DNA of 63,117 bases, the filler included, from Asterionella formosa (Eukaryota): the NCBI GenBank assembly GCA_002256025.1. It is 9 parts of 9 records of this genome, joined end to end, with 100 filler letters (N's around TTAATTAATTAA, not from the genome) between each part and the next. Parts side by side here need not be neighbours in the genome. Positions count along the whole stretch, not along the records: positions 29,111 to 54,777 come from NKIB01001901.1; 8 more parts are not named here. One strand, given 5' to 3'. Shown here in pieces: positions 6,831-45,512 of the stretch. Each line of letters begins with the position of its first letter. Position 1 is the first letter of the stretch. A program made the position numbers and the translations under genes. The notes beneath the pieces are model-generated. The model saw nothing but the letters and a program-made list of their open reading frames with translations. It was not told the DNA's origin and made no database searches.

Positions 6831-8448
6831 TGATTCGCTAAAGTTTAGCTACTTCAGCTATTGGTATGGAAGTGTAGTAGGAAGAGCAATGAATAGTATA
6901 TATATGAATACATGTATTTAAATATTTTTTATTCTTTGAACAAGTCTATTTGTGGTAGTAGTACCATCTTATACTGGTAGTCCAGTTCCAGTAGACTAGG
7001 TAAGAAGCCAGTATAGTAGGAAGGTACTGTATAGCTTAGCTATGTACCGGTACAAGATACCTAGCAGCACTACCGGTGCTACAACTTGGAGCTCCTATAT
7101 ATGTACTACTTGATGTTCTACCCGGTATATCAGCGTGTGGAGGCAGAAAGACCTGGTACCTGGTACAAGGTACCTCCTGATAGTTGGTAGATGCTACGTA
7201 TCTGTAGCTCTTATGCAGTAAAAGTTGATAGAAAAATGTTTCTACACAATTTGTTTGTTTTACTTTGTGTGCTAATAATTGTTTTTATAAAAGAGTGAGC
7301 TCAATGTAAATATAAATTTGAATGTATAATTTTGAAACTTCCAAGCTCATGCATGTTTCAAAATAGAGGTGATTTTCGGAGGCCAGGAGGTTCATTTGTG
7401 TTCCCAACTTGAACTGGTGAGAATGAACTACATCCTCTTCCTAAATACTCATTTGTCTTAATCTTGGCCTGTCTCAACTTAGGCCAGATGCTGTTTGATC
7501 GAAGACTGCTTCTTACAGAATGATCCTGTTAATCATAACTAGATCATATCTAGTTTGCTTCTTTAATGTTCCTTGATTTTGCGGACATATCTGTAATTGT
7601 CTAGTCAATCATTCATTGATTTGGCCTCTAGGTCTTCTCGTCTTCTAGAGTCCAATTAATAGGTTAGAGAGAACTTCTCCTGAAAGTTCCTCTCTCAACT
7701 GTGGCATTTTACATGCGATATTAAACCATGTGTCCTTGACTCAATCATCTAGTGGATTGTGGTACATGTTCCTAATCAGGTCACTAGGGACGAAAATATA
7801 TTGCCACTCTCATAACCTGATCTGGAATCAGGAATCTCTATATGTTTCAACTTTGATGAAGTATTTGCACAGGCATTTGTCGTAGTCACGTGATCATTTT
7901 CGTAATCTATCTCCTAGCACTTCGTGGTGAGTTGCTCCTGGTATACCTACACGTGGTACCTGGTACAGGTCCCCTGGTACTTTAATGTACCAGTTACAGA
8001 TAAACTACCACATCATCATGCTCATTGAACATAATATATACACAGGGTCTATATAAAATAGAAATAATAAATATTATTTATCACGCCGTTCAGCCGATTT
8101 CGACATCAAGGATGGCATACGAATGGATTCTGGATTCCGTCTTGTGGTACACTCGTGTGTAGAATTTATCGTATGTAGCCTATTCATATCTGACCTACAT
8201 AAATGTCGAAGTGTCCGGTAAAACTGAAATTCAACTCATCACATTCGCAGGAATAGAAATGTTTTACCTGTCAACCAGATTCACGTAAGGCACCGGTAGT
8301 CTATTCAAAATTCTGTCAACCTCACCAATTCACTACATTTATTTTCAAAAGGCAAAGCCGAATGAACCTTGCTGTCAAGAAAACATTATCCGAGAGTTGT
8401 AGTCTATCATCTCTGCATATTTATTCGGTCATCATTTCAGTTCTTGCT

Positions 8449-25674: not shown

Positions 25675-25774
25675 NNNNNNNNNNNNNNNNNNNNNNNNNN
25701 NNNNNNNNNNNNNNNNNNTTAATTAATTAANNNNNNNNNNNNNNNNNNNNNNNNNNNNNNNNNNNNNNNNNNNN
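25675..25774. other. Artificial contig linker N44-TTAATTAATTAA-N44 (also 27343-27442, 29011-29110, 54778-54877, 56453-56552, 58120-58219, 59786-59885, 61452-61551)
   Basis: Eight identical 100-bp spacers with stop codons in all six frames. Confidence 0.98.
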
Positions 25775-27342: not shown

Positions 27343-27442
27343 NNNNNNNNNNNNNNNNNNNNNNNNNNNNNNNNNNNNNNNNNNNNTTAATTAATTAANN
27401 NNNNNNNNNNNNNNNNNNNNNNNNNNNNNNNNNNNNNNNNNN

Positions 27443-28174
27443 TTTGCCGTGCACCCTGACATGAAGAGCCACACCGGTGGCGTGATGTCTTTTGGAACTG
27501 GAGGCATCATATGCAAGTCGACCAAGCAGAAATTGAACACAAAGAGTTCGACGGAGGCTGAATTTGTGGGCGCCAGCGATTATCTCCCGAACACGCTGTG
27601 GGTAAAAATGTTTCTTGAAGCACAGGGATACAAGATTCAAGAAAGTTTCTTCGAACAAGACAACGAGAGCGCAAATAAACTCGAGAAGAACGGACGAATT
27701 TCGGCAGGGCCAAAGTCTCGGCATATCAACATCCGCTATTTCTGGATTAAGGATCGATCGGTAGATGAAGGAATCACCATTCGCCATTGTCCAACGTTGG
27801 AAATGTTGGGGGATTTCTTTACGAAACCACTGCAAGGAAACCTGTTCAGAACATTCCGAAATGTGCTTCTAGGAGCTGCGCACGTCGATACCCTGACTGC
27901 CAGTTCCCTGGCAACAGCCGAGGAGCGTGTTGAAAAAATTCGAGCTGACTGCCACAGGACAGGCGTGAAGGGTATAGTAGACACGAGAGAGTACAGTACT
28001 ACAGTTAAAACCGTACAGCCGCTACCAAGAGTTACCTGGGCTGACGTGGTAAAAGGCACCACGCAAGGAAAAGCAATCAGAGGTCAAGAAAAAATGTTAA
28101 AATGCAGTGTGAGTAATAAGAGTGTTTCGAGACCATTATCTCGAAACAATCCAGTTAGTAAAGTGAAAGTTTAA
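27443..28174 (+). CDS. Ty1/Copia RNase H C-terminus (partial pol)
   Basis: HPDMKSHTGG, KQKLNTKSSTEAE, EQDNES, KSRHINIRYFWIKD, MLGDFFTKPLQG. Confidence 0.92.
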   Translation, partial: FAVHPDMKSHTGGVMSFGTGGIICKSTKQKLNTKSSTEAEFVGASDYLPNTLWVKMFLEAQGYKIQESFFEQDNESANKLEKNGRISAGPKSRHINIRYFWIKDRSVDEGITIRHCPTLEMLGDFFTKPLQGNLFRTFRNVLLGAAHVDTLTASSLATAEERVEKIRADCHRTGVKGIVDTREYSTTVKTVQPLPRVTWADVVKGTTQGKAIRGQEKMLKCSVSNKSVSRPLSRNNPVSKVKV

Positions 28175-29010: not shown

Positions 29011-29112
29011 NNNNNNNNNNNNNNNNNNNNNNNNNNNNNNNNNNNNNNNNNNNNTTAATTAATTAANNNNNNNNNNNNNNNNNNNNNNNNNNNNNNNNNN
29101 NNNNNNNNNNCT

Positions 29113-32100
29113 TCTTCATTCTCTACTGCATCGCGAGCATTTCAATCATCGTTACGCCGAAATCGCCTGTATCCACGGCCCTCGCCGTTATCATTCTGCG
29201 TCGCAGCTGTCGGCGGCAAATTTCGATCATTCTTTGTGGCGGCAGGCGAAACCGAATCTTCGCATCCCTCGCTTAGACCCTTGACACGTCCCTTTGAAGT
29301 GACAGCTCCCTATGAACCAACCGGTGACCAACCAGAAGCGATTCGACAACTCATTCAGCAGCTGGAGGAGGGGGACAAATTCTCAACCTTGCGCGGGATC
29401 ACTGGAACTGGCAAAACGTTTGTCATGTCACATGTTATTTGTCACGCAAACAAGCCGACACTGGTGCTATGTCACAACAAAACATTGGCAGCCCAATTGG
29501 CAAGAGAACTTCGTAGCTTTCTCAAGAAGAATGCGGTCGAGTTGTTTGTTAGTTACTACAACTACTTTAAGCCAGAAGCGTTTCTTGAAACTACTGGGAA
29601 ATATTTTGGCAAAAAGTCGTCGGTCAATGAAGAAATTGACGCATTGAGACATCGCGCAACCAGGGCTTTACTTGAGAGGCGAGATGTCGTAATAGTCGCC
29701 AGTGTATCGTGTATATATGGACTAGGACTGCCGGCAGAATATCTCGCAGCGTCAACGATCATGACTGTTGGCGATACTATGCGCTCACTTGATCTGATTG
29801 CAAATTTGGAAAAAATGCTATACACACGACCTGAGGATCCAGGCGAGATGCTCCGTGGGAACTATCAACTTGCTGCCGGACCAGCAGGTCACGTTCTGTC
29901 GATCTGGCCGCCACAAGAAAGATTTCCTCTATCCGTTCGATTCAACGGCGTAGGGGACACAGTGCAAGTATCATCCATAGATGGAATCGACTTCGAAGAA
30001 GAAAAATTTACTGCGTCTTCAATTCGTATTTTCCCTGCTAAACATCATGTTTTTAATGAAGACATACGAGAAGAAGCTTGTCTAGCCATTGAAGCCGAAA
30101 TGCGAGATCGAGTCCAAGAGTTGAACTTCCTAAAGATGGAGGAGCAATCTAAGAGGTTACAGATGGGCGTATCAAATGATTTAATCCTGCTAAGAGAAAC
30201 TGGATTTTGTAACGGAGCTGAAAATTACTCACGACATTTCTCCAAACGAGCGGCAGGAGAAGCTCCTGATACCCTGATCGACTATTTAAAAATGTCTGCA
30301 GATGGAGACTGGTTGCTCATCGTGGATGAGTCGCACGTGACCTTACCACAGCTTAAGACCATGTACCGAGGCGATCGATCAAGGAAAGAGATGTTAGTGA
30401 AGCATGGATTTCGCCTGCCATCAGCAATGGACAATCGACCACTACAAGAGGAGGAATTTTGGAAGCAAGTTGGTCAGGCTGTCTTCGTTTCAGCGACACC
30501 TGCAAATTACGAACTTGAGAAGAGTCAGCGACCTCCAGTCGAAATGGTGATCCGTCCAACATTTATTTGCGACCCGGAGATTGATATTAGACCTTCGCGA
30601 GGTCAGCTTGCTGATTTGGTGAATGAAATCAAGAAAAGAGCTAGCCGAAATGAAAGAACGTTGGCTATGGCCATCTCCAAGAGGGACGCAGAGGATCTTG
30701 CGACTTTCTTGGGTAAGGAGGGGGTCTTGGCTACGTTTATTCACTGTGATCTAACAACACACGAACGTTCTAATGCAATCAGATCACTCCAAAATGGTGA
30801 AGTGGATTGCCTTGTTGGGATTAATTTGCTGCGAGAAGGTTTAGATCTTCCTCAAGTCTCTCTCGTTGCCATCCTCAACGCCGATTCTGCAGGCTTGTTT
30901 CGCTCTCACACCGCTTTGCTTCAAACTATTGGGAGAGCAGCGAGAAATTCGAACGGAGCTGCAATATTTTATGCGGACAGAATAACTGATAGCATGCAGA
31001 AAACTATTGAGGATACCAAGCGACGACGGGAGAAGCAGTTGGCATACAATGAAGCTATTGGATGCAAGCCAATATCGACGGAAGGCTCAACAATGATGTC
31101 AATCTTTGATTTACTACGAGACGAAATCAAAGATCAACGAGAGCAGACTGAGGCTTTCGACCGCTCCGATGGCTCGACGAAATCTCGAAAATGTCTACAA
31201 GAAACAGAAAGGGTTGAAGTTCCTCTACCACTGACCGCTGACAGGATCTCCGTCGTTACTGGTAATTTACCCTCAAAACCTGGTGTCTACTTTTGGAAGG
31301 ATGGACAAGGCAACATTCTGTACATTGGTAAAGCAAAAAAACTTCGAAATCGTGTCCAATCATACCTATCACCGAATGCCAAGCACAGCTCTAGGATCAA
31401 GACAATGATTGCTAAATCTACCACCCTTGACTTTGTTCTTACACCAAGCGTTCGCGATGCGTTGATTTTAGAGTCAAATCTTATCAAGCACCATCAACCC
31501 CTTTACAACGTGCTTCTCAAAGATGATGAGACTTATCCATATATTTGTGCATCCATAGGAGATAAATTTCCTCGCTTCTTTTCATCTCCAAGAAGGCAAA
31601 CTGGAGAGAAAGCTTCGAAATATAGATACTTTGGTCCATATCCTCACTTCCAGGAGATAAATGCACTTCTGGGAGAAATCGAAGAAACTTACAGCCTTCG
31701 AGCAAAGTCGTTTGCAGCCCGTCACGGTGACTGTACCCAGACAGAGTACGCAGAGATGTTTAATCTAGCAATGGTTGAGGTATTCGAAGCGGGTGCTAAC
31801 AACAGTCAATTAGTGGAGATGCGTTCTGAATACGAAGAGGCCAATTTACTCTTTACTAGTGCCGATAACAAGTGTCGAGATGTTGTTGCAATTGGACATG
31901 CCGAAAACGATGAAAACAATTTGTTGGTTCATGTGGTACAAATGCGAGAGGGTTTGGTGGCTGGTCGCTTTTCCTACTCCTGCGAGCTCCAGTCAGGCTT
32001 TTCGACAGAAGAGGACATGTCTGCCGTGATTCAAGCCGTCCTTGAACGACAGCACTATCCTTCGGGAGAAGAAAGCGGTGGATGTAAATTTACTTTCTTT

Positions 32101-33021
32101 CCGGATGAGATCTTGTCACAGTTCCCAATCGAAAACGAAAACGAACTTAAGAAGGCTGTCAAGATAGCAAGAACCAAAGTGGAACCCAACAGTAGCGCCA
32201 ATCTGAAGATTCGAAATCCGGCAACTCGGGGTCCAAGAAAAGAAACCGATGCTCGGGCATTGGAATTCGCATTGGGCAATGCAAACCAAGCAGCTCTGGA
32301 GTGGCAGCAAAGTACGGTCGTGGGCGCAACGAGGTCTTCAATTGATGGCACTGCCATGTCGGAACTCGTATCCATGCTTTGTTTGGAAAAACCTCCACGT
32401 AGAATTGAGTGTTATGATATCAGCCATACCCAGGGAGAGGTTGCTGTTGGTTCACGGGTGGTTTTTATCGATGGGAAGCCTTCCCCTATGCTTTACAGGA
32501 AGTTCAATATCAAGACCGTTGAAGGGAACAACGACTATGCAAGCCTCGAAGAAGTCCTCGAACGACGTTTTCATCACGTCTGGGAACATGAAAGAGGCGA
32601 GCTAGTCCACCAAGATGACCCATGGGCTCTCCCTGACCTTGTTGTTATTGATGGAGGGGTTGGTCAGCTCGGAGCGGCCATCAAGGGCATGACAAAGGCC
32701 GGCGTGTTTCCTCCAGCATTGCCGTATTTGGGATATCACGTGCCCTCAAAAGTGAAGGAAGAAGATATTTTGGAGGAAGAAATCATACTTAAGTTTGAGA
32801 ACAACACCCATGTCATGATCTCATCTCAATGCACTCATGTTCCCATTTGCGCTTTGGCGAAATCAAAAGAAGAAATATTTGTCCCTGGTCATAGCATCCC
32901 TGTGAATAATTCCCCCGACTCGCCAGGGCTACTTCTACTGAGGTCCTTGCGAGACGAAAGTCATCGATTTGCATTGGATGCCCATCGAAAACGGCGAAGT
33001 CTTAAATCCAAGGAGGTTTAA
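29113..33021 (+). CDS. uvrB-uvrC: UvrB-UvrC fusion protein (excinuclease helicase + GIY-YIG + RNase H-like nuclease), 5'-truncated, probable plastid targeting
   Basis: UvrB part: PTGDQPEAI, GITGTGKT, HNKTLAAQL, FVSYYNYFKPEAF, VASVSCIYGLG, DESH, GFRLPSAMDNRPL, VSATP, GINLLREGLDLP, QTIGRAARN. UvrC part: LPSKPGVY..ILYIGKAKKLRNRVQSY, PLYNVLLKDDETYPY, RIECYDISH, NDYASLEEV, PDLVVIDGG, LRDESHRFA. The frame is open back to the contig start (SSFSTASRAFQSSLRRNR...). Confidence 0.93.
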   Translation, partial: SSFSTASRAFQSSLRRNRLYPRPSPLSFCVAAVGGKFRSFFVAAGETESSHPSLRPLTRPFEVTAPYEPTGDQPEAIRQLIQQLEEGDKFSTLRGITGTGKTFVMSHVICHANKPTLVLCHNKTLAAQLARELRSFLKKNAVELFVSYYNYFKPEAFLETTGKYFGKKSSVNEEIDALRHRATRALLERRDVVIVASVSCIYGLGLPAEYLAASTIMTVGDTMRSLDLIANLEKMLYTRPEDPGEMLRGNYQLAAGPAGHVLSIWPPQERFPLSVRFNGVGDTVQVSSIDGIDFEEEKFTASSIRIFPAKHHVFNEDIREEACLAIEAEMRDRVQELNFLKMEEQSKRLQMGVSNDLILLRETGFCNGAENYSRHFSKRAAGEAPDTLIDYLKMSADGDWLLIVDESHVTLPQLKTMYRGDRSRKEMLVKHGFRLPSAMDNRPLQEEEFWKQVGQAVFVSATPANYELEKSQRPPVEMVIRPTFICDPEIDIRPSRGQLADLVNEIKKRASRNERTLAMAISKRDAEDLATFLGKEGVLATFIHCDLTTHERSNAIRSLQNGEVDCLVGINLLREGLDLPQVSLVAILNADSAGLFRSHTALLQTIGRAARNSNGAAIFYADRITDSMQKTIEDTKRRREKQLAYNEAIGCKPISTEGSTMMSIFDLLRDEIKDQREQTEAFDRSDGSTKSRKCLQETERVEVPLPLTADRISVVTGNLPSKPGVYFWKDGQGNILYIGKAKKLRNRVQSYLSPNAKHSSRIKTMIAKSTTLDFVLTPSVRDALILESNLIKHHQPLYNVLLKDDETYPYICASIGDKFPRFFSSPRRQTGEKASKYRYFGPYPHFQEINALLGEIEETYSLRAKSFAARHGDCTQTEYAEMFNLAMVEVFEAGANNSQLVEMRSEYEEANLLFTSADNKCRDVVAIGHAENDENNLLVHVVQMREGLVAGRFSYSCELQSGFSTEEDMSAVIQAVLERQHYPSGEESGGCKFTFFPDEILSQFPIENENELKKAVKIARTKVEPNSSANLKIRNPATRGPRKETDARALEFALGNANQAALEWQQSTVVGATRSSIDGTAMSELVSMLCLEKPPRRIECYDISHTQGEVAVGSRVVFIDGKPSPMLYRKFNIKTVEGNNDYASLEEVLERRFHHVWEHERGELVHQDDPWALPDLVVIDGGVGQLGAAIKGMTKAGVFPPALPYLGYHVPSKVKEEDILEEEIILKFENNTHVMISSQCTHVPICALAKSKEEIFVPGHSIPVNNSPDSPGLLLLRSLRDESHRFALDAHRKRRSLKSKEV

Positions 33022-34225
33022 CCTTCCTAAATGAGCCTCACCAGCCACTGTTCGAGTGCCCTAAATTTTGACTTTCAATCCAACATTTCCAAGTAGATTT
33101 CACATCGGAACTTGCCACAGAATAGTTAATAGTAAGAACCTAACCCACATGAAGCACTTCACATGAACATATTAGGTAAAGATGCCAGGGCATTGACAAC
33201 ATTTTTTTCATTCTGACTGACAAATTGTATACTAATCCTCTATTTTCATCCCATTTTTGACTCCAGCAAAAATTGTGGGGCATTTTAAAATTGTAATGCT
33301 GCAAGAAGAATGGGACTCATGGGCCATAAGCATTTCTTCAGCATCGTCCCTGTAGCTGTGAGAGTGATGCCTGAAATTGCTTACAATGAGTTCCCTATTT
33401 TTCAGAAAGTTATTTTACTTTTTCATTATGTCATCATGGTAGGCAGTCATTTCATGTCAGAAGGGGGACCCAAAAATTGCTTGATAATTAAAATGAAAAT
33501 AGTTAACTATAGGAAGATATTAGGATGCTAAATTTATATTGCACCCTTGAGATGACATTTGAAGTGTTGGTGTTCCCTCTATTGTATTTTGGCACCGAGA
33601 ATGCATGGATAAAACCAATCCATCTTGTTTGTCTCAGCATACACATGAAGATTGTTGCGGGATAGAAATGGAACAAAAATTCTTCTGAAGGAGGAATCCA
33701 AAATATCCAATGAGTGAAGATTCGAATCATCATATTATTAGCATGGTGTAATTACTCAGTATATTCCAGATAGAAAAGGGACACATTTAGATTGTCAATC
33801 AATTGATATCTGATCATCACACTGGTGGTCATCCACAGCTACTATGTATTTATGTAATAACATTTGAGGTGCAAACCTGAGCTACCAAATTTGGGCAACA
33901 CAAACACAAATTTTTGGGCTATTAGTACAACAATTTGTGTTATAAAAGACACTAAGATATAATTTTGGCACGCTCTGCCTGATAATACAAAATTTTTATT
34001 TCATGTATGTATTAAATCAAAAATTGTTTTGGCGATTTGATACATAATGTCGTCATTACGGTTTGATAATCGAGATATTTTTATATTACTTATCTGACAT
34101 AAAGTATATATTTAACTATAATTGTTAACAGTGAAATTTTCGTATGATTGCATCCTCATCTATGCTATCCTACCTGTTCATTGTATGCAGGAGTTCTATA
34201 TATTCATCATCATCAGTTGCCGACA

Positions 34226-35558: not shown

Positions 35559-36615
35559 TTATTCCGAAGATGACATTTCGGCTTCTAGTGATTCTGATTC
35601 CGACATTTTGGTGATCGTTGAAAAGGCCAATATTGTCGAATTTCGGGACAAGAATAGCTCAATGTTGGCAGGGTTTGAAGAAGTGCTAAATAAATACTAA
35701 GTAATCTTCATATAGCCCCAGAAGTTAATTTTCGATGAGAAAATGTAGAATGGAGGAACTTCGGTGTTGTTACTACTAGGCCAAATAAACAAGTTGGCCC
35801 AGTAGAATCCACTATTTTCAGCATGGCTAAAAACCCGAAGTTCTTTTCTGCAGTTTCTGGACAGATCCAACGATATACCGATATACTGACATTATATATA
35901 GAGTTGACCTACACCCCTTGTTACTTTGATCAATGACTGTATCTATGTTAAATTCTTCTTCAGTCTGACTGCAGCCAATGCTAGCTCTTTCTAGACAAGC
36001 TCAGTGTATTAAAACCTTCTGTTCTTATCCCACCTTATTGTGAGCTTATTTGATCTAACTTTTAATCTTTCACATGACCAATTATTATGATCTCTTCCCA
36101 AATTTGTATATAGATATTCATTGTGTTGTTAGACATTCAATTCTCAACTGACAACTTAACTCTTCTCACTTCCTAGCAGAACAATCGTGAATATTTAATG
36201 CTATCTGCATTGCATATATACCTTTCCTTCATTGAAATATTGATTACTTAGAACATTCTCCATTCGAATATTTACCTTGCTGATTCAGTTCTTGACAATC
36301 AATGCTGTTCAAATTCTCACAGCCTTTCAATAGAGGTTTTTGTCTGGAATTTTATTCAAGATTGATTAGTTCGACTAAACTAATATGCACGCAGTGCTAA
36401 ATCTTGACATATATAAACATACACCGGTATATATGGAAAGTGTATTTTGGGGAAAGCTCCAAGTACCGGTAGTGATGTACAGGTATAGAGGTGTACCTTT
36501 ATTCGTACATTTTACGCATGCATCGCATTTTATCCTCCGCCTCCAGGGCTGAACATTGCTTTGCAAAATACCGGTAGTCGCTCGAAGTTCAAATGACAAT
36601 TTCGGAAGTAAGACG

Positions 36616-37605
36616 ATGATGTTATGTGCCACACTTTTTCGCCGCTCCCACCTTTGTGTACAGCGACGAAGCTTTTCCTTCATTCCTCCCAATCTTAATT
36701 TGAAGGAGGATAGTGCTGCTTCTCAGACGCTTCGAGGATGTGGACAGGTCATTTTTCTTGGGAATTCTTCGCAGGGCGCAGCCGTTTTGACTGGGTTGGC
36801 TATTGGGGATCCAACATTAGCAGTCTGTGCGCTGGGAGGAGGCGCATGGTGCACGGCTTTAGCTAGGGCCACTCTCAAGGAAGGAGACGAATCAACAAAT
36901 AGCGGACTTAACGCCTACAACGGCGTCTTGGTCGGAGCTGCGTTTTCCGTATTTCTTGGACCTGATCCATTGATTGTTGCTGGAGCCACTGTGTTGGGAT
37001 CGACTGGAGCCTTTGCTTTGACCAGGGCATTGGGAGCTACATATCCTTTTGGTCCACAATGGACCTTTGCCTTCAATGCTGCTGCTATTGGAGGTTTGAT
37101 TACAGCGAAGCTACTTGCTCCACCGACCAGTTCTATGCCCCCCGCCCAAGTTGTCGTTGCCGAAACAGCACTGGAGTTATCTGATCTCATATACTCTCCC
37201 TTCACTGGAGTTTCGCAAATCTTTCTAGTCAACTCACCAATTTCTGGTGCCATTCTTCTCGGATCCATTGCTATGACGTCTCCGGTTGCTGCCGCACACG
37301 CACTAACAGGAGCTGCCATTGGCAGTGTTATGGGGATTTCCTCTGGTGCCGACTTCGCGGCCATTGCCGATGGTCTATGGGGATTTAATCCATGCCTCAC
37401 TTCATTGAGTGTAGCCATTTTCTTTCCTACAGTATCAGTTGGTCAAGTGATTCTTTCAGCTGGTGGTGCTGTTGGCACCACCATGTTGACAAGTGCGATG
37501 GGTCCCATCGTCATGAGTACACTCGGAACGCCGGCATTCACTTTACCCTTTTGCTTCGCTGCAACGGCTACTTATGGAATAGGCAAGGTCATGAAATTGG
37601 GCTAG
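36616..37605 (+). CDS. Urea transporter (UT/SLC14 family), probably mitochondrial
   Basis: Two pseudo-repeats: LRGCGQVIFLGN / FTGVSQIFLVNSP, GLNAYNGVLVG / GLWGFNPCL, WTFAFN / FTLPFC. Presequence MMLCATLFRRSHLCVQRRSFS. Confidence 0.9.
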   Translation: MMLCATLFRRSHLCVQRRSFSFIPPNLNLKEDSAASQTLRGCGQVIFLGNSSQGAAVLTGLAIGDPTLAVCALGGGAWCTALARATLKEGDESTNSGLNAYNGVLVGAAFSVFLGPDPLIVAGATVLGSTGAFALTRALGATYPFGPQWTFAFNAAAIGGLITAKLLAPPTSSMPPAQVVVAETALELSDLIYSPFTGVSQIFLVNSPISGAILLGSIAMTSPVAAAHALTGAAIGSVMGISSGADFAAIADGLWGFNPCLTSLSVAIFFPTVSVGQVILSAGGAVGTTMLTSAMGPIVMSTLGTPAFTLPFCFAATATYGIGKVMKLG

Positions 37606-37665: not shown

Positions 37666-39321
37666 CTAAACAAGTTTGACAACAGTAGTCAATTCACTTT
37701 TGGATCGAAGACTCGCTAAAGGAACAATAGAAACACTACAGTCCACATCCCATCGCACTATACAATAGTCTCCCGGCTCAGTGTATCTCACATGCCCCGC
37801 CACGAGCTGGAGCGTCAGTTCGTGAAACGGTGCGTCAAATGGCTTGGCCGAATACCAAGTGTCATCGCATGTCCACCAACCAATCAATGACTGTCCTGTT
37901 GCAGCTGTAACAATGGTTTTGCCTGCCGATAGCATGCTAAAAAGCATAGCCTCATGTGGCGATGTGGGAAGATAGGGTGGAATTGTCTCGTCCAAAATTG
38001 CTCTAGCTAAAGTGGCGTCGTCTCCGCAGTCACTGCACAACACACACTCTTGACGAAGCACTGCAGTCGTTGTCGCGGTGGAATTAATTTGAACAGGAAT
38101 GTAGCTACCGCAAACATCACCTTTCAATCGTAACTCCCTCACCATACCCTTCCAATTGATTTTGCTAAAGTGCACTACCTTTACTCGTGTAACTCTCCCA
38201 TCCGAGGAATAATGCCACAATTCGGTACCTTCCTTCACACTCCAGTCCATCCATTTCAATGTCGTGGCCATATCTGCTTGTGCCATGGCAAAAAATTCCG
38301 GTAATTGGATCCAATTGTGCACTGCGTAGGATGGGAGAACATGCTGTACAACGGCGGTCCATGTGATCTGGCAGTGATGAAATTCCACTAAAATGGCACC
38401 CTGTTCCATGACGGCCCGTACTTTGGCACAGAAATAGAGGGGCGGGAGGTAATCAGAGCCATCCAATGAGGTTGGTGGTCCACCGGTCCATTGCGCATAT
38501 ACGCCGTCCTTGATGGAGTGATCATGGATCGTCCATAAAGGAATTTCGTCATGATCTGATGCTGTGTGCTCTGTGGCAATGTCAGAGATTTTTCCAGAGG
38601 AGGCTGGTAGGACGTGGACCACTCTCGGATCGACATGGCGAAGTGCCACTCGCAGACACTCAAACTTGACGGTCATAATGTCATGTGCCATGATCCTAAT
38701 GATATCTTGCAGTGATTGTTCGCGACAGTGCTGCATGAATGAGTGAGTCATGGTCCAAGCTGGTCCGGCATTGCAATTGGCAAGTGTGGCCATGAAGACA
38801 ATGTATCGTTTTGTGGTCTTCGCGGGAATGACTTGTTCTACATTTCCGGAATAGCAGCAATCCATAAGTAGCAATACATTGGTGCCCGAAAAGTCGGTTT
38901 CGATCATGGCGAACATGTCATCATGTCGCCACTTTCCTTGCAAGGTACAAAAGTGATCGGCCAGTCCATGGCCGCCATAGTAGACCAGAAGGGAAGTTGC
39001 AGTTGTTCCTTTCGAATGACGTTGTAGCAGTGTGGATAAATGATATCGAACTGTGGGCAACGTTGCTTTGTCGTCTTTGATAAATACCACTTGATTAGCT
39101 GGTACTTGCAGCTCCAGGAAGAATTGATACAATCGTTCGTCTCCGCTGGTCGCACGGTTCGTTTCGTATTCCGAGTTGATGCCCACAATAAACACCAACA
39201 GAGAGCCAGGGTCTAAGAAATAGTCCGTACTTGTATTGATATTACCATTACCGGTACTCTCCTTCGATACTGTCTCTGATGTGAGGATTGTGTGGCCATG
39301 ATCATTGCGCCCCAACGACAT
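37666..39321 (-). CDS. Caspase/metacaspase-fold (clan CD) peptidase with C-terminal Tudor/Agenet-like segments
   Basis: LVFIVGIN, LLVYYGGHG and LLLMDCCYSG give the His-Cys dyad. The C-terminal half has aromatic beta-rich motifs VYAQW...YFCAKV and IGWW..DDTWYSAK...IVRWDVDCSVSIVP. Confidence 0.7.
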   Translation of the reverse strand: MSLGRNDHGHTILTSETVSKESTGNGNINTSTDYFLDPGSLLVFIVGINSEYETNRATSGDERLYQFFLELQVPANQVVFIKDDKATLPTVRYHLSTLLQRHSKGTTATSLLVYYGGHGLADHFCTLQGKWRHDDMFAMIETDFSGTNVLLLMDCCYSGNVEQVIPAKTTKRYIVFMATLANCNAGPAWTMTHSFMQHCREQSLQDIIRIMAHDIMTVKFECLRVALRHVDPRVVHVLPASSGKISDIATEHTASDHDEIPLWTIHDHSIKDGVYAQWTGGPPTSLDGSDYLPPLYFCAKVRAVMEQGAILVEFHHCQITWTAVVQHVLPSYAVHNWIQLPEFFAMAQADMATTLKWMDWSVKEGTELWHYSSDGRVTRVKVVHFSKINWKGMVRELRLKGDVCGSYIPVQINSTATTTAVLRQECVLCSDCGDDATLARAILDETIPPYLPTSPHEAMLFSMLSAGKTIVTAATGQSLIGWWTCDDTWYSAKPFDAPFHELTLQLVAGHVRYTEPGDYCIVRWDVDCSVSIVPLASLRSKSELTTVVKLV

Positions 39322-40121
39322 GTCTTGCTGTCACCAATGGTCCTGCTTGCGTACATATGAGACTGCTGACGAGACTACCCCGGTACATAGCATGCTTATT
39401 AGACAGCCACCAGTATCATCAGGAAGGCGAGTTAAAACGCGTGAGTCATGTTCGTATTGCGTAGCGTGCACCTGGTATATATAAGAATTTCCCGCCAGCA
39501 TTTTATGATTGCATACAGAGTTGAATAAATCTGAATATGCCAATCCCGCCTCGTTGGCTCTAATATCGGCTCATTACTTAGACGAACACCAAAAATTCCG
39601 ATACTAATCAACATTGAATTAACAATCAGGCATGAATATATGGTGGAGTCAAGTCCTGATTTGATTTTGCAGTTGAGCCGCGCACTGGCGATGGCCATGA
39701 TGCCGGCGAGAAATAAGGAGGTGCTCGTTGGGAACGAGCATGGGCGAAGGATGGCTCAACGCTTGATGGCTCTTTTTTGGCAAGAATAGGCCCGCTGCTA
39801 TCGATGTCAATTGTTGAATTTCCTAAATGTACTGCCGGTACCGGTTATTTACTCATCAGCAGGTACAGTACTACCGGTATGTACTGTACCTGTGTACCCT
39901 GCCGGTAACATACTCGTACTCTCGTCCGAGCCGAGAACGATCAAGGAGCCAACAGTCGACGAACAAGCGCCTCACTTGATTCCTTACCGAATTTTCGTTC
40001 CCGCAGCTCCAACTGAACGGAATTCTCTCATAAACTCTCAGGCACTGACTGTTGACCTGACTTCCTGCACACCGGTGCACATATACAAATAGTTGATCGT
40101 ACGGTGTACTGTGATCACACC

Positions 40122-43100
40122 ATGTCCACATCCGAAAGGACAATGGCTGCTGCTCGGCACCACTCCGCCTTGGCCGAGTCGCTGACCAAGGAAAGCTGCC
40201 ACCACGCCGCGTTGGCGCAATATCAACATGCCCTTGAACTATTTCGACAATCCTATCTACGGGGCATCGTGTCGTCCAAAGGCGACGCTGCCATGACGTT
40301 GTACAACATGGGTCTACTGAATCGGAAAACAAATCAACGACATGAGAGCATGGCGTGCTTTGTGGAGGCGGAGGAGTTGTTGCTGCAGTTGCCACTGCGC
40401 TACAACGAAGGGCTCTTGGTTGAGACACTCCAGCAGAGAGCGAGTTTGCTTGCGACGGGCCAAGAGGCGATTGATTGTCACGAACACGTGGTTTCGCTGT
40501 TGCTGGAGGACGAGGACGACCCAGGAGAGGCGGCGGAATGGGCACAACTATATGAGGCGAGAATATCCGACGACAAGCGAGCGGAAATGCTGACTGTTTC
40601 GCTAAGGGCGCTGGGACAACTGTACCTATCGCAACAGAACGTTGACGAAGCGTTGAGAGCGATGGAGGAATGCTTGGTCATGGCGCGGGTCAGACAAGAG
40701 AGGCTACCAGAAAATGACGAAGTTTCGAATCTCGTCTTGTTGCTCATTTTGCAACTCTCGACACTGTACTTTCAACAAGAGGATTTCGAAGGAGTCATTT
40801 CTCTATTGGAAGAAGCTGTCGTCTTGCAAAAAGAACGAGGAGAGGATGTGGCATTATCTTTGAACAATCTTGGACTTGCTAACGAGCGCAAGGGCGATTT
40901 GATCAAGGCATTGTTGTACTATCAAGAATTGTTGCAACTGCGAAGAGAAGGAAATGATCCCATTCGCAGCGCTGAATCAATGGTTACTTGTGCAAAGATT
41001 TTGGAACGTTCACGAAGAACTCACGATGCAATGGCCTTGTACCACGAAGCTTTGGCTATTTATCAGCAAACTCCACAATTGTATTCTGCCCTGATAGCCG
41101 AGATTATGGTTCGAACCTCTAGCTTGGGGGTTCCAGTATACTCGGAATCACTACTGACGATGCATCCCGATGACAACGACAGGACCATAGATAAGGCCCA
41201 CTTCTTTTATGAACTCGCGAGACAATACCAGCAGCAAAAGGTTCACCAAGCAGCAAAGGATTGCCTCCTGGAATGTAGGCAACTCCTGGAGACCATGTCG
41301 AGAAATGAGATTGATGATTTGGGAATTCGAGTCGACGCATTAGAGCAAATGATTCAGAACGATCAAATTATCACTGCAGCTGAAGAGGATCCCAGACAAA
41401 CCTACGAGTCGTTCCATTTTACACCATCCCAAGCAGACGATTTACTGCCGTGTAAGTCATCTGAATCAGCAACGCAATTCGTCGAATCACCACTAGAGCA
41501 AGACGACGATTGGACCCTACCTCCCTTACAAACTAGGTTGATAATGATCGAACAAGAAGGGGTGGAGATGGAACACGTGGAACGCCCCATACCCTCTCCA
41601 ACACTTGAACATCATACCGATTGGATTTTCAACGATGTCATTAGTGTTACATCAGAAATAAGAGAGATTACAGGCCCCAATGACGGAAGACTTGGGATAT
41701 CCCAAAGACCGACCGCCATGGAAGCGCAGTACTGCCTGCTTCCGTTGTCATCAGTAGTAGCTGATGAATCAGATGAAAGTCAGATTACGAAATTAGCCAA
41801 GGCTGTGGCGCGGGATGATGAGACGCCAGGCTTGACATGTTTGATGACCTCCAACATTGACGACGAGCCAGACCCCGAAATAACTCTTGACATGATGGAA
41901 CTATTAGAGGAAGAATCAGATGATGAAGAATCACATCCCCTGGTTGATTTCAACAAGTCTACTAAAGAAAAAAGCAATACTCTCCACGACGACCGGCCTA
42001 GTGTTGCGGAGACTGAGAGTGAATCTGATGTTTCCGATGAAATTTGCAAAGAGGAAGGAGAGATTGAATCAATTCAAGAGTCAGTGGAGGAGTCACTGAA
42101 GGAGGAGTACATTGGAATTCAACACTCCATATCTGCTGCAGCCAAAGGTGTTACTCAAATTTTTGGTTTCATTTTTGATGGACAAGAGAGCGAGCGGTCG
42201 TTCCAGAATGTTAAGGCCTCGCCAACCACCGTGATGAGTGGATTATTCGGACATCTTGTTACTCCCAATCCAGCTGAGCCTGTAGAGTGGGAAGACACCG
42301 GCGATGGTCATGAAGAGGCCAATTTCGACTTCTCTTTGGAGAACATTCCATCTGTAAACGATGGAGATGAAGCTGATACAGGGACGTTTCATGAAGACTT
42401 GGCAAATGCTAGCACAAGTTGTGAATCCTCCGTCGAGTCCAGTGATGATTACAGCGAATCTTCAGAAAGCGACTGCATGTCACATTCCGATTCCGATGAC
42501 TACGAGGATGCTCACTCGGTTTCGGATTTCGAGACAGGATTTGACTACGACCAACCAGTCGATAGTTTCCTTGGTTCATCTGGAGTTCCAGAAGGAGATG
42601 CTTTTTGGAGCGATGATGACGAGGCTAGTGATTCTTTCTCTCGTGCTGACTCGAATACAAATGAACAAAGCGATGATGTGTCTGGTCGGCCGAGTATCGT
42701 TCCTATATTTGGCTACGACCAACAAGTCGACAGTTTTCTTGATTCATCTGGAGTTCCAGAAAGGGATGTCTATTGGAACGACGGTGACGAGACCAGTGAT
42801 TCCTTCTCTCGTGCTGACTCAAATACAAATGAACAAAGCGATGATGAATCTGGTCGGACGAGTCTCGTTCGTATCGACAAGGATCAACGGGCACCAACGA
42901 GAACCGCCAATACCGTTGTTGCCGACGACGAGGTGTGTCCCGCAAAATCGCCTTCGATTTCACCGACGGACGTTCTCGAATTGCACGGCAGGCCTTTATC
43001 TCTGGAGAATATCAAGTGCGCCTCCTTTGGCAAAAGATTTCCCAGAAATCGTGTTGTGAAGGCAATTTCAAATACATTTCGACGGGTAAGGAAGAGAAAA

Positions 43101-45512
43101 AACAAGTTGCTTCCTTCTACACCGGAAGGTGATATAACACTCATTTCCCCGGAATCATCGCCGGAATCATCGCCGAAGCAACTGGACTTCCCTGCTTCGA
43201 CAACAGCAGTGGATTCAATGGATGTCACTCCCATAGGCCCAGTCCAAGTTATAAAACTTAGGGAACGAACTCGATCTTGTGAAGATTCAGTCTCCCAAAT
43301 TACTTTTCATCGCGACGAACAACGTGTTCAAAGCTATCAAGTCGAGGGCGATACTCAATGGTGGTGGGGAGCGACTGTCAATGGGCTTGAAGAAACCTTG
43401 TTCATGGCTCATGCTGTGGCTGACGACTTCTTTTCGGCCCAGTCCATTCACGAAAAGAGGCGCAAGAAGCGTGAACGCAAGATGCGTGAATTGGCTTCCC
43501 ATCATGCCGGCAGTGATAACCTTGTTGAAAGCGATGACGATTCCGATGTCTTCAGAAACCTAGATAATGAGCAGATGCACTCTTCGGATGGAGAGGAAGC
43601 TGAAGATGAGCCTGCTGCACTACAAGAGCGAATTGAGAAGCAATCCCACATAGGGCCCAACCTTGAAATGATTGCTCTTGAGATTGACAATGCAAAATGG
43701 GTTCCACCGAAGAATAGTAACTCGATTCGTGGAACGCGAGGTCAACATAAATCATCCAAGACGCAGAATCAAATTTTAGAAATGTTGAATGCAGTTGATA
43801 GTATGAATTCAATGCACGGATACTATAGCATTGAAGTTGCGCTTGCTCTGGTGGCACTCGGAAAGCTACAATTGGAAGTTGGAGACTCGGATCTAGCAAC
43901 TGAAAGTATTCTTCAAGCTCTCAAGGTTCAAAAAGCAATTGGCAACCCTCTTGAAATGACTCGCTCCTTACATGTGCTGGCAGAGATTTACTCAATTCAG
44001 CAAGAGTTTGAGCAAGCCTTGGATTGCTACAAGGATGCCCAGAGACTTGAGAGAAGGCTCTATGGCCCCGACCGCCCAGAGAATGCATGCACGCTCAATC
44101 GAATGGGACGAGTATATGCCAATCTTGGAAATTTTTCCCTTGCCATGGAAAAGCATCAGCAGGCCCTTCAAGTGCTCAAGGGTTGCTGCGGAGAGAACCT
44201 CCGACATCCAGCAGTTTCCCAGACTTTGATTCTTATTGGCGAAGTCTACTATCGAGAGCGAAACAGCTTTGATACAAATAGATCGAACTCCTCAGACGAC
44301 TATGGCACATTTATTGAAGCCGGCATGCTCGATATCATTGCTCTGGCCCATGAAGATCGCGGTTCTGTCAAGATGGCATTGTGCTTCTTGGAAGAGAAGA
44401 TCCAAGTGATGCGAGATAGAAAATCTCCGAGTGCTCCCAGCGATATGATTTCAACTCTCTATAGCCTTGGCACTCTGAGTAGCAAGGCTGGTTTGTACTT
44501 TGAAGCTATCGACTATTACGAACAAGCGTTGGGAATGCAGCGAGAGCTCGGATGTACCAATGTACAGGAAGCAACCGCAATGGTCTTGATCGGCACGGTT
44601 GATTTTCATATGGGTCAATACAAAAAATCACTTCTGCTCCTAAACGATGCACTTGCTATACTGACGCTCGCTCTCGGGGATGACGACGAACTCGTCGCAG
44701 ACACTCTGCAGCGAATAGGGTCAGTCGAAGCCCGACTCAACAACTTTGACGGTGCGTTCAGCCACTTCAATCGGGCAATAAATATTCAAAGGGATTTTGC
44801 TGGCCATTCCGATCCGTCTAAAATGAGAATGCAGTTGGAGGTTGGCATTGCATTGTTGGGTGAATACAAAACTGATAGGGCTATTGAAATCTTCGACGAG
44901 CTCAAGATCAAGCAGGAAAATCTCCACGGCCGGAAACATCCCGACATTGCCGATGTCTTGCACCAACTTGGAGTTGCGTACAAGCTCAAGGGCGACTATG
45001 TCAAGGCCATGGCCCTTTTCGAAGAAGCCTATCAGATGCGTCAGCAATACTTTGGTCGCGACCATCCCTTTCAAGCATCCACTCTCCACGAGATCGCATT
45101 GCTCATGTTGAGAAAGGATCAGGTCAGGAAGGCATTGATCATGTGTACCTCCGTGCTAGAAGTGCGCAAAGAAACTCTTGGTGAACGACATGTTGATGTG
45201 GCCCTGACAATTTCAACCCTTGGTCGTTGCCAAACTGTTTTGGGCAACTTTGGTGCATCTCTAAAAGCATTTACTGAGGCGCTACCCATGGCAGAAGAAG
45301 CAGTGGGAGCCAAGCACCCTCTGGTTGGTGATATTCATATAGACAAAGCCATGCTCCATTTGAAAAAATGTGAGTTTGATGAAGCCAAGAACGCTGTGCG
45401 CGCTGGTCTTGCAATTTTCAATTGGTCCCACGTTCCGGAAACGCATCCAAGACGAATGGCGGCCTTGGAGCTCTTGGAAAAGGTTGACCGTGATGAGATG
45501 CTGTGTGTTTAA
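40122..45512 (+). CDS. Large TPR protein (kinesin light chain/nephrocystin-3-like TPR_12 repeats) with an acidic disordered centre
   Basis: About 1796-aa single ORF with N- and C-terminal TPR arrays (e.g. HPDIADVLHQLGVAY, HVDVALTISTLG, ACTLNRMGRVY) and an Asp/Glu/Ser-rich middle. Confidence 0.85.
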   Translation: MSTSERTMAAARHHSALAESLTKESCHHAALAQYQHALELFRQSYLRGIVSSKGDAAMTLYNMGLLNRKTNQRHESMACFVEAEELLLQLPLRYNEGLLVETLQQRASLLATGQEAIDCHEHVVSLLLEDEDDPGEAAEWAQLYEARISDDKRAEMLTVSLRALGQLYLSQQNVDEALRAMEECLVMARVRQERLPENDEVSNLVLLLILQLSTLYFQQEDFEGVISLLEEAVVLQKERGEDVALSLNNLGLANERKGDLIKALLYYQELLQLRREGNDPIRSAESMVTCAKILERSRRTHDAMALYHEALAIYQQTPQLYSALIAEIMVRTSSLGVPVYSESLLTMHPDDNDRTIDKAHFFYELARQYQQQKVHQAAKDCLLECRQLLETMSRNEIDDLGIRVDALEQMIQNDQIITAAEEDPRQTYESFHFTPSQADDLLPCKSSESATQFVESPLEQDDDWTLPPLQTRLIMIEQEGVEMEHVERPIPSPTLEHHTDWIFNDVISVTSEIREITGPNDGRLGISQRPTAMEAQYCLLPLSSVVADESDESQITKLAKAVARDDETPGLTCLMTSNIDDEPDPEITLDMMELLEEESDDEESHPLVDFNKSTKEKSNTLHDDRPSVAETESESDVSDEICKEEGEIESIQESVEESLKEEYIGIQHSISAAAKGVTQIFGFIFDGQESERSFQNVKASPTTVMSGLFGHLVTPNPAEPVEWEDTGDGHEEANFDFSLENIPSVNDGDEADTGTFHEDLANASTSCESSVESSDDYSESSESDCMSHSDSDDYEDAHSVSDFETGFDYDQPVDSFLGSSGVPEGDAFWSDDDEASDSFSRADSNTNEQSDDVSGRPSIVPIFGYDQQVDSFLDSSGVPERDVYWNDGDETSDSFSRADSNTNEQSDDESGRTSLVRIDKDQRAPTRTANTVVADDEVCPAKSPSISPTDVLELHGRPLSLENIKCASFGKRFPRNRVVKAISNTFRRVRKRKNKLLPSTPEGDITLISPESSPESSPKQLDFPASTTAVDSMDVTPIGPVQVIKLRERTRSCEDSVSQITFHRDEQRVQSYQVEGDTQWWWGATVNGLEETLFMAHAVADDFFSAQSIHEKRRKKRERKMRELASHHAGSDNLVESDDDSDVFRNLDNEQMHSSDGEEAEDEPAALQERIEKQSHIGPNLEMIALEIDNAKWVPPKNSNSIRGTRGQHKSSKTQNQILEMLNAVDSMNSMHGYYSIEVALALVALGKLQLEVGDSDLATESILQALKVQKAIGNPLEMTRSLHVLAEIYSIQQEFEQALDCYKDAQRLERRLYGPDRPENACTLNRMGRVYANLGNFSLAMEKHQQALQVLKGCCGENLRHPAVSQTLILIGEVYYRERNSFDTNRSNSSDDYGTFIEAGMLDIIALAHEDRGSVKMALCFLEEKIQVMRDRKSPSAPSDMISTLYSLGTLSSKAGLYFEAIDYYEQALGMQRELGCTNVQEATAMVLIGTVDFHMGQYKKSLLLLNDALAILTLALGDDDELVADTLQRIGSVEARLNNFDGAFSHFNRAINIQRDFAGHSDPSKMRMQLEVGIALLGEYKTDRAIEIFDELKIKQENLHGRKHPDIADVLHQLGVAYKLKGDYVKAMALFEEAYQMRQQYFGRDHPFQASTLHEIALLMLRKDQVRKALIMCTSVLEVRKETLGERHVDVALTISTLGRCQTVLGNFGASLKAFTEALPMAEEAVGAKHPLVGDIHIDKAMLHLKKCEFDEAKNAVRAGLAIFNWSHVPETHPRRMAALELLEKVDRDEMLCV
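42543..42870 (+). repeat. In-frame 168-nt (56-aa) tandem duplication inside the TPR gene
   Basis: YDQPVDSFLGSSGVPEGDAFWSDDDEASDSFSRADSNTNEQSDDVSGRPS versus YDQQVDSFLDSSGVPERDVYWNDGDETSDSFSRADSNTNEQSDDESGRTS. Confidence 0.92.

Follow-up and report, generated by a model that had tools for sequence, protein, structure and literature searches.

A gene of the freshwater diatom Asterionella formosa raises the question of how an excinuclease of the bacterial type can operate when its helicase subunit UvrB and its nuclease subunit UvrC are made as one polypeptide by a eukaryote, and of which cellular compartment such an enzyme would serve. The gene lies at 29111-33021 of the stretch of DNA analyzed here (the window: 63,117 nucleotides (nt) of assembly GCA_002256025.1), at the very beginning of the part that comes from contig NKIB01001901.1. 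It had been singled out in a reading made without database searches, hereafter the sequence-only reading, as a UvrB-UvrC fusion that lacks both UVR docking domains and bears a plastid-type leader. The comparisons set out below make it probable that the product is encoded in the nucleus and directed to the plastid, where it would act as a one-chain excinuclease with a covalent link in place of the UVR-UVR docking of the two subunits.

A single open frame with spliced transcripts

The reading frame is uninterrupted from the first base of the contig, 29111, through the stop codon at 33019-33021, and its translation comprises 1302 amino acids (aa). The features that define the gene and its transcript are:

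29111-33021, + strand: UvrB-UvrC fusion coding sequence, intronless and truncated at the 5' end; residues 34-1335 of the full-length protein P0001, followed by the stop codon
29011-29110: artificial linker that truncates the 5' end of the gene, removing 33 codons and the 5' untranslated region (UTR)
33174-33264, + strand: intron in the 3' UTR, GT..AG, 91 nt; skipped by the spliced RNA joint 33173->33265 and kept in DNA

The single intronless UvrB-UvrC frame of the sequence-only reading is thus confirmed, along with its linker of about 60 residues and its domain order, which Pfam reproduces. What has to be corrected is the position 29113 given there for the start of the frame, which is a contig edge and not the start of the gene. 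The linker at 29011-29110 interrupts the contig, and the 5' end of the gene is therefore absent from the window. P0001 (1335 aa) is 100% identical to the translation over the part present in the window, with an A/T exchange at residue 533 as the sole difference, and it supplies the 33 further N-terminal residues that lie beyond the linker. These 33 residues are encoded nowhere in the window, where tblastn matches just residues 34-45 of this region, at 29113-29148. At the nucleotide level, position 30610 is G in the window and A in the contig of sequencing run X7.

The fusion stretch or part of it is contained in 20 of the 24 public runs listed, eight of these 20 being RNA, and the runs with the stretch come from 13 studies, chiefly of lake or other freshwater samples. 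Contigs from four of the runs were mapped to the window, one run of DNA (X5) and three of RNA (X7, a 4563-nt contig from poly(A) RNA, and X8 and X9, which are metatranscriptome contigs). The contigs of X7, X8 and X9 span 29111-33173 with zero indels and zero joints, and the first record of X5 spans 29111-31903. RNA from two studies and an independent DNA contig hence cross the junction between the halves at 31080-31260, where a stop or a misjoin had been considered, and all of them are colinear with the window. Downstream of the stop codon, the 3' UTR intron is removed in X7 and in a short X8 contig and is retained in the second record of X5, which indicates that the transcripts are spliced; the X9 contigs end at 33175 and restart at 33265, leaving the intron unbridged. 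The RNA contigs are uninformative on transcript ends and on expression levels. The fusion gene is a eukaryotic nuclear gene with spliced transcripts. The splicing seen in poly(A) RNA, the neighboring genes for a urea transporter and for tetratricopeptide-repeat (TPR) proteins, and the nuclear orthologs of other diatoms all identify the contig as eukaryotic and not bacterial.

The UvrB half

Pfam matches along the 1302-aa translation follow the order ResIII, a sub-threshold UvrB_inter, Helicase_C (E 8.8e-17), UvrB (PF12344, E 5.4e-16), GIY-YIG, UvrC_RNaseH (PF22920) and UvrC_RNaseH_dom (PF08459). The first four of these belong to a UvrB helicase core with the following elements:

29290-31083, + strand: UvrB helicase core, P0001 residues 93-690, delimited by the alignment with 2fdc_A and by Pfam
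29395-29418, + strand: Walker A motif GITGTGKT
29548-29583, + strand: beta-hairpin VSYYNYFKPEAF
29761-30045, + strand: UvrB domain 2 (UvrA-docking), P0001 residues 250-344, present and strongly diverged
30322-30339, + strand: VDESHV, the DESH box
30922-30948, + strand: motif VI, QTIGRAARN

The core aligns with residues 5-614/615 of the 658 residues of the Bacillus caldotenax UvrB 2fdc_A (E ~1e-175; 6.4e-176), an alignment that reaches the edge of the UVR hairpin (domain 4) of the bacterial protein and stops before it. The aromatic beta-hairpin VSYYNYFKPEAF, an element that serves damage verification, is aligned with VSYYDYYQPEAY of the same protein. All motifs quoted in the sequence-only reading were recovered at the positions assigned to them, and their key residues show strong conservation: across 71 aligned fusions G131, G133, K134 and T135 of the Walker A motif, D438, E439, S440 and H441 of the DESH box and Q637, G640, R641, A642 and R644 of motif VI are invariant, as are S180, P187 and E188 of the beta-hairpin, with V179 and Y182 nearly so.

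The one region in which the core departs from this picture is domain 2, the UvrA-docking site, which according to passages of PMC3458569 also contacts DNA. In the query it scores 17.7 bits with UvrB_inter (PF17757), a model whose cut-off lies at 22.9, and hence the claim of a complete UvrB core holds for the motifs and for the 2fdc alignment, domain 2 being present yet below the Pfam threshold. The same is seen in 33 of the 34 fusions that were scanned with Pfam (the query at E <= 1, 29 of the 71 that span the identity range at E <= 0.1, and four others at E <= 0.01), the exception being P0284 with 38.2 bits. Comparison of the fusions with cyanobacterial UvrB gives 24% identity in domain 2 versus 54% in the remaining core. 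The ratio of domain 2 identity to that of the rest of the core is 0.45 for the fusions, compared to 0.68 for the UvrB of Cyanidium and 0.73 for other bacteria. Likewise, identity among the fusions themselves amounts to 26% in domain 2 and 56% in the rest, as against 47% and 64% among bacteria.

Domain 4 of UvrB (UVR, PF02151) yields no match in any of the 34 fusions scanned. As controls, 51 of 53 stand-alone UvrB matches (P0287-P0339) carry PF02151 in their precomputed Pfam annotation, and the bacterial UvrB P0287 has a UVR match of 35.9 bits. Passages of PMC7835731 describe this domain as auto-inhibitory, the ATPase being shut until UvrA and single-stranded DNA open UvrB.

The linker and the UvrC half

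In the place of domain 4 the chain continues into a linker and a reduced UvrC:

31084-31260, + strand: linker between the halves, P0001 residues 691-749, about 60 residues, replacing UvrB domain 4
31279-31509, + strand: GIY-YIG nuclease (3' incision), PF01541 E 3.9e-08; 1yd6_A E 1.8e-20; Foldseek match to 1yd6 with TMt 0.89
31282-31302, + strand: GVYFWKD of the GIY-YIG domain
31510-31878, + strand: shrunken UvrC middle region, from the alignment with 10 bacterial UvrC
31807-31854, + strand: UvrC UVR remnant QLVEMRSEYEEANLLF, from the same alignment
31879-32292, + strand: central RNase H-like platform, PF22920 E 5.3e-06; a confident fold in the model
32374-32973, + strand: RNase H endonuclease (5' incision), PF08459 E 4.8e-42; D-D-H triad D1135, D1213 and H1317
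32407-32433, + strand: ECYDISHTQ
32644-32670, + strand: VIDGGVGQL
32734-32793, + strand: diatom-specific acidic loop within the RNase H endonuclease domain, P0001 residues 1241-1260; low confidence in the model
32947-32973, + strand: LRDESHRFA

An AlphaFold2 model of P0001 residues 700-1335, built from the 71-sequence alignment (mean predicted local distance difference test score, pLDDT, 86.2; predicted template modeling score, pTM, 0.64), contains, after a disordered linker, the GIY-YIG domain and a small bundle of helices, followed by two RNase H-like domains. The middle of the linker is predicted to be disordered, with pLDDT <50 at residues 711-732 (model residues 12-33). Foldseek searches with the model retrieved only UvrC fragments, namely 2nrt (E 6.8e-12), 8b0q (E 4.2e-11) and 1yd6 (E 5.6e-07). 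In the alignments with solved structures, the C-half matches 1yd6 over the GIY-YIG domain and 2nrt over the RNase H part alone (residues 7-109 of 220). Both active sites are intact throughout the 71 fusions, with G757, Y759, Y770, G772, K773, R780, E820 and N832 of the GIY-YIG domain and D1135, D1213, G1214, G1215, R1313, D1314, E1315 and H1317 of the RNase H domain invariant. Variation in this part of the protein includes the acidic loop, whose size ranges from 20 to 45 residues.

Between and beyond the nuclease domains, several elements of bacterial UvrC are missing. When six fusion C-halves were aligned with 10 bacterial UvrC, the Cys-rich iron-sulfur (Fe-S) block was found to be deleted in all six, at about 31696-31740 in the query; passages of PMC10085695 give its consensus as CX6-14CX3H/QX3CX3C and also describe the UvrB-interacting helices. 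The chain terminates about 12 residues past the RDESHRFAL..HR..R helix, where bacterial UvrC adds about 60 residues of paired helix-hairpin-helix motifs, (HhH)2. Neither UVR (PF02151) nor any HhH family was detected by Pfam in any of the 34 scanned fusions, and the bacterial UvrC controls P0133 and P0137 show UVR plus HhH (HHH_2 and/or HHH_5). Pfam and the alignment with bacterial UvrC thus agree with the sequence-only reading that the UvrB UVR domain, the Cys cluster and the C-terminal HhH pair are gone. Its statement that the UvrC UVR domain is absent needs qualification: no intact UVR occurs in the 34 fusions, yet a vestige, QLVEMRSEYEEANLLF, persists at 31807-31854, and at the position of the hairpin the model has helices of just 9 and 4 residues (model residues 233-241 and 245-248).

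Distribution of the fusion

A first protein search scored 8000 candidates, and the best 120 of these are mostly full-length fusions or fragments of fusions. In all, more than 70 full-length fused orthologs were recovered from independent assemblies, including diatom scaffolds of megabase scale. Among diatoms the fusion is found in Cyclotella cryptica, Cylindrotheca closterium, Seminavis robusta, Nitzschia inconspicua, Nitzschia sp. Nitz4, Pseudo-nitzschia multistriata, Mayamaea pseudoterrestris, Thalassiosira profunda, Epithemia clementina, Amphora coffeaeformis and Bacillariaceae metagenome-assembled genomes (MAGs); beyond diatoms it occurs in Chromera velia and in the red alga Rhodosorus marinus. 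In databases these proteins are named 'excinuclease ABC subunit B' or 'hypothetical', and one JGI label gives both subunits. The ESM Atlas returned only bacterial UvrB clusters (0.86) and no fusion cluster, and is uninformative on the distribution.

The fusion of Rhodosorus marinus (P0114, 1137 aa) and that of a relative (P0111, 1072 aa) are shorter and have no PF22920 match; in the alignment P0114 is without the central RNase H-like platform altogether.

We also scanned 185,579 prokaryote species genomes with two patterns, by which the outcome is biased, and found no fusion among the 80 best bacterial loci. In a Thermodesulfobacteriota MAG (L077) uvrB (995-3013) and uvrC (2988-4868) overlap by 26 nt in different frames, and in a Parcubacteria MAG (L069) uvrB (989-3034), an open reading frame (ORF) of 872 aa (3103-5721) and a short uvrC-like ORF (5718-7079) are consecutive. 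Adjacency of this kind is an arrangement from which a fusion could arise. In the uncultured cyanobacterium L002 the uvrB match (964-4020) occupies 3057 nt for just 593 query residues, which suggests that this uvrB carries a large insertion, possibly an intein.

The probable targeting leader

The part of the leader that remains in the window consists of:

29113-29289, + strand: remaining targeting leader, P0001 residues 34-92
29131-29142, + strand: candidate signal-peptide cleavage site ...SRA|F, preceding a basic, Ser/Thr-rich, transit-like stretch

With the missing residues supplied by P0001, the N-terminus reads M1...M24-VLPFLFYQPSSFSTASRA|FQSSLRRNR. It presents a Met, then the short hydrophobic stretch VLPFLFY and then ...SRA|F, which agrees with the plastid-type leader with an ASAF-like site that had been proposed from the truncated frame, and adds the signal-like portion upstream of it. 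Residues 43-92 hold eight Lys and Arg, two Asp and Glu and ten Ser and Thr. For diatoms, passages of PMC4329603 connect plastid import with an ASAFAP motif in which F at +1 is crucial. In a strict form of our leader test, which demands a Met, a hydrophobic 6-residue window and [ASGC][FW], 42 of 58 scored leaders of the family are positive, whereas shuffled leaders average 4.5 positives and reach 10 at most in 200 shuffles; a loose form is passed by 54 of the 58. Clear signal peptides with F at +1 are seen in Cyclotella cryptica (...FFFLSHRSALA|F) and in Chromera velia (MRVSLLCVAMALPLNSYA|F, ending in ...YA|F), and the Rhodosorus protein P0114 has a plain presequence without a signal peptide. 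Considered alongside the cyanobacterial origin of the two halves, this motif makes the plastid the likeliest destination of the fusion protein.

Cyanobacterial ancestry of both halves

The top five hits of the prokaryotic pattern scan are cyanobacteria, with 47-50% identity. To place the two halves separately we computed trees with IQ-TREE. In the tree of the UvrB half (LG+C20; 71 rows, from which the ORFs L046_B and L050_B were left out) the 22 fusions form one clade with a Shimodaira-Hasegawa-like approximate likelihood ratio test (SH-aLRT) support of 100. This clade is joined stepwise by the UvrB of Cyanidium caldarium (95), by four cyanobacteria (98) and by a Sericytochromatia genome (99). 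In the tree of the UvrC half (63 rows) the fusions are again one clade (100), sister to four cyanobacteria and P0133 (98), and in a smaller UvrC tree of 54 rows that includes the stand-alone UvrC P0132, this protein groups with the fusions (99) and the fusions are recovered by themselves with 92. The search for homologs and the separate trees of the B and C halves thus produced fused relatives and a cyanobacterial position for each half, which adds support for a plastid function. The trees indicate that both halves are of cyanobacterial ancestry and appear to have been fused once.

Two unfused proteins lie closest to the fusion clade. P0132 (610 aa, from a 1897-nt Logan contig) has an Ala/Arg-rich, transit-like N-terminus and possesses the Cys motif and a UVR match of 27.5 bits, without (HhH)2; the database proteins closest to it (41-45% identity) are without exception UvrC of cyanobacteria, and it is probably an unfused algal intermediate. 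P0286 is the stand-alone UvrB of Cyanidium caldarium (831 aa). About 170 residues extend its N-terminus, its domain 2 is canonical (87 bits), and its UVR match is weak, staying under the cut-off (17.9 bits). The presence of an unfused UvrB in Cyanidium implies that the split system persists in some red algae.

The simplest history suggested by these relationships is one in which a cyanobacterial uvrB and uvrC would have been transferred to the nucleus of the red-algal lineage, after which UvrC would have lost (HhH)2. A single fusion of uvrB and uvrC may then have been followed by loss of both UVR elements and the Cys motif, and diatoms and chromerids would have received the fusion along with their red-derived plastids. 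The order of these steps is one that we infer, the trees being unrooted and quick.

A probable one-chain excinuclease and the alternatives

In the mechanism that we propose, a bipartite leader recognized by its motifs (a signal-like stretch, F at +1 and a basic transit peptide) would import the protein into the plastid. There, the UvrB half, which keeps its ATPase, helicase and beta-hairpin motifs, would verify the lesion, and the tethered UvrC half would cut 3' through its GIY-YIG domain and 5' through the D-D-H site of its RNase H domain. The flexible linker of about 60 residues could stand in for the docking of UvrB domain 4 on the UvrC UVR domain, thereby fixing a 1:1 stoichiometry. If the tether does replace docking, the UVR helices, the Cys-rich Fe-S motif and (HhH)2 would have become dispensable and been lost, the anchoring by (HhH)2 presumably being unnecessary because UvrB holds the DNA. 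That so reduced an enzyme could function is made plausible by UvrC of Deinococcus radiodurans, which, according to passages of PMC10085695, still performs dual incision without (HhH)2, with weaker 5' cutting. The one-chain organellar excinuclease put forward in the sequence-only reading is therefore supported at the level of sequence, and its localization, incision and loading are what we infer.

Loading is the step on which the possible readings diverge most. Since domain 2 has diverged and the auto-inhibitory domain 4 is lost, loading may not need UvrA, and Springall et al. 2018 (PMC5814901) report that the Escherichia coli UvrBC complex finds UV lesions without it. The fusion might accordingly be viewed as a self-sufficient, UvrA-independent UvrBC whose helicase is permanently ungated by the deletion of domain 4 and which, its domain 2 released from UvrA docking, scans plastid DNA, verifies damage and cuts twice alone; we put this forward tentatively, as having somewhat less than an even chance. 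The same fusion could instead be loaded in the classical manner by a nuclear-encoded, plastid-targeted UvrA dimer that docks on domain 2, with only the recruitment of UvrC hard-wired, a serious possibility that we likewise rate a little below even. Domain 2 is kept in all fusions with its core motifs RG.YQ, WPP and IFPAKHHV, it exceeds the Pfam cut-off in P0284, and the strong domain 2 of the Cyanidium UvrB points to a lineage that had inherited the full system. This has to be set against the low identity of domain 2 to its cyanobacterial counterparts relative to the rest of the core, its position under the Pfam cut-off in all but one of the scanned fusions, its divergence among the fusions compared to that among bacteria, and the disappearance of domain 4, whose block UvrA normally relieves in the account that passages of PMC7835731 give.

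With regard to the compartment, it is unlikely that the protein is mitochondrial or dual-targeted and not confined to the plastid. Such a destination would suit the Arg/Ser-rich query leader with its short hydrophobic stretch, the plain presequence of the Rhodosorus protein, which fits either organelle of a primary alga, and the 16 of 58 leaders that fail the strict plastid-type motif. However, both halves are cyanobacterial and not alphaproteobacterial, the actual leaders show [ASGC]|[FW] behind a hydrophobic stretch about nine times as often as shuffled ones do, and in the Chromera velia and Cyclotella cryptica orthologs F comes after a signal peptide that is long and clear. That the fusion has left nucleotide excision repair (NER) for another role on plastid DNA, such as structure-specific cleavage, ribonucleotide removal or DNA turnover, is distinctly improbable. 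Four elements important in bacterial NER are indeed lost or degraded, and the Rhodosorus-type proteins P0114 and P0111 are also without a detected central platform (PF22920). Nonetheless, the ATPase, GIY-YIG and D-D-H residues are invariant in fusions from diatoms, Chromera and red algae, the retention of both nuclease sites together with a damage-verifying helicase is what dual incision requires, and the bacterial UvrC without (HhH)2 makes both cuts (passages of PMC10085695). An artifact, be it a bacterial contaminant or a misassembly of adjacent genes, might have been suspected given that the contigs of the window are joined by artificial linkers and that overlapping uvrB and uvrC exist in a bacterium (L077); it is refuted by the bridging RNA and DNA, the intron, the neighboring genes and the more than 70 orthologs.

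Certain observations weigh against the plastid-targeted one-chain excinuclease as we have described it. The hydrophobic stretch of the query is short and its leader is rich in Arg and Ser, like mitochondrial presequences; M1 and M24 are both candidates for the start codon of P0001. The leader test is a home-made heuristic, failed in its strict form by 16 of the 58 leaders scored, and these 58 were drawn from 74 full-length homologs, 16 having been omitted as short or without a starting Met (the omitted ones are probably truncated gene models). Given that domain 2 is retained and also binds DNA, its divergence is no proof of lost UvrA docking. As for the ancestry, the trees are quick, unrooted searches with SH-aLRT support alone, their bacterial rows come from the pattern-biased scan, several rows are of deviant composition, and the 63-row UvrC tree includes two mis-chosen ORFs (L092_C and L093_C). 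Ranked simply by score, the closest named stand-alone UvrC are from Clostridia, Melainabacteria and Chloroflexi and the closest named UvrB from Planctomycetota, Myxococcota and Chloroflexota, so that the cyanobacterial signal is owed to the trees and the pattern scan and is not seen in every ranking.

Relationship to known systems

The fusion resembles bacterial UvrB (2fdc of B. caldotenax) and UvrC (2nrt, 8b0q and 1yd6, from Thermotoga maritima / D. radiodurans) in possessing the helicase core, the beta-hairpin, the GIY-YIG domain, the platform and the D-D-H site, and its chemistry is likely to be as in bacteria, the lesion being verified first and the DNA then cut 3' and 5'. It differs from them in being one polypeptide encoded by a eukaryotic nuclear gene with an organellar leader, in lacking domain 4, the Fe-S motif and (HhH)2, in having only a remnant of the UvrC UVR domain and in its diverged domain 2. 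The nearest sisters of its two halves within the same lineage, the Cyanidium UvrB P0286 and the stand-alone UvrC P0132, are separate proteins. Unlike Cho, which performs 3' incision only and has no RNase H half, the fusion keeps an RNase H domain with a conserved active site.

UvrB lacking domain 4, or UvrB*, was reportedly treated by Wang et al. in 2006. As in UvrB*, the auto-inhibitory C-terminal domain is missing from the fusion; UvrB* is, however, a laboratory or proteolytic truncation unable to recruit UvrC (passages of PMC7835731), whereas the algal protein has UvrC in the place of domain 4. The E. coli UvrBC complex, as portrayed in PMC5814901, is a UvrB-UvrC unit capable of lesion recognition alone, which is the behavior that the fusion would need if UvrA is absent; UVR-UVR contacts hold that complex together without a covalent bond, and it serves UvrA as a minor back-up, in contrast to the covalent fusion from which the UVR domains are gone. 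The D. radiodurans UvrC-delta(HhH)2 (passages of Seck et al. 2023, PMC10085695) shares with the fusion the want of the C-terminal (HhH)2, and differs in being an engineered construct in which the Cys motif and the UvrB-binding helices are still present and which depends on a separate UvrB. Finally, the plant 'uvrB/uvrC motif' proteins AT2G03390 and EXECUTER have the name alone in common with the fusion: they are plastid proteins with a short UVR motif (passages of PMC4824065) and without helicase or nuclease, and the fusion is the reverse.

Searches of openly available full texts yielded no account of a UvrB-UvrC fusion occurring in nature or of a UvrBC in a plastid. A 2006 survey of the GIY-YIG superfamily lists no eukaryotic UvrC; the words 'Uvr' and 'excinuclease' are absent from the eight supplementary files of the ASAFind paper, in which proteins may appear by number alone, and from the main text of PMC5462543, whose supplements (770 conserved plastid proteins) might include the fusion. 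Fused gene models are already public under automatic names, and the sequence itself is hence not new. What appears novel is a conserved single-chain architecture, not described in the literature searched, in which four canonical elements are lost, the domains and the pathway being known.

This architecture amounts to a natural experiment on the assembly of UvrB and UvrC, maintained across diatoms, chromerids and red algae, in which the docking domains, the Fe-S motif and (HhH)2 have been removed and a covalent tether appears to suffice. It bears on questions that, as we read PMC10085695, PMC5814901 and PMC7835731, are still under study in bacteria, namely the recruitment and activation of UvrC, the roles of domain 4 and of UVR-UVR contacts, and UvrBC acting free of UvrA. 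A stable 1:1 UvrB-UvrC unit could ease structural work on the incision complex. The fusion is also a candidate excision-repair enzyme for the plastid DNA of ecologically dominant algae, for which the literature searched yielded no defined enzyme, and it illustrates cleanly how endosymbiotic gene transfer can lead on to fusion and then to loss of the interface. Were UvrA-independence to prove true, a three-protein bacterial pathway would have collapsed into one polypeptide, and the fusion would be the first defined NER enzyme of a plastid.

Genomic neighborhood and other features of the window

The window is made up of separate contigs, most of about 1.57 kb and one of 25.7 kb, the latter (29111-54777) bearing the fusion gene. 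They are joined by eight identical artificial linkers of 100 nt, each consisting of N44, TTAATTAATTAA and N44:

25675-25774, 27343-27442, 29011-29110, 54778-54877 and 56453-56552: the first five linkers
58120-58219, 59786-59885 and 61452-61551: the last three linkers

As these linkers connect separate contigs, neighborship across any of them is meaningless. On the contig of the fusion gene itself we found no bacterial operon surroundings, and its neighbors are eukaryotic:

36553-37602, + strand: urea transporter (PF03253, E 4.9e-50)
37669-39330, - strand: ORF without a Pfam match
40056-45509, + strand: TPR-repeat protein of 1818 residues, downstream of the fusion gene
47211-48881, + strand: ORF without a Pfam match
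52047-54041, - strand: TPR protein of 665 residues, downstream of the fusion gene

On the small contig upstream, an ORF of 241 aa (27449-28174, + strand) may encode the C-terminal portion of a retrotransposon polyprotein of the Ty1/copia type.

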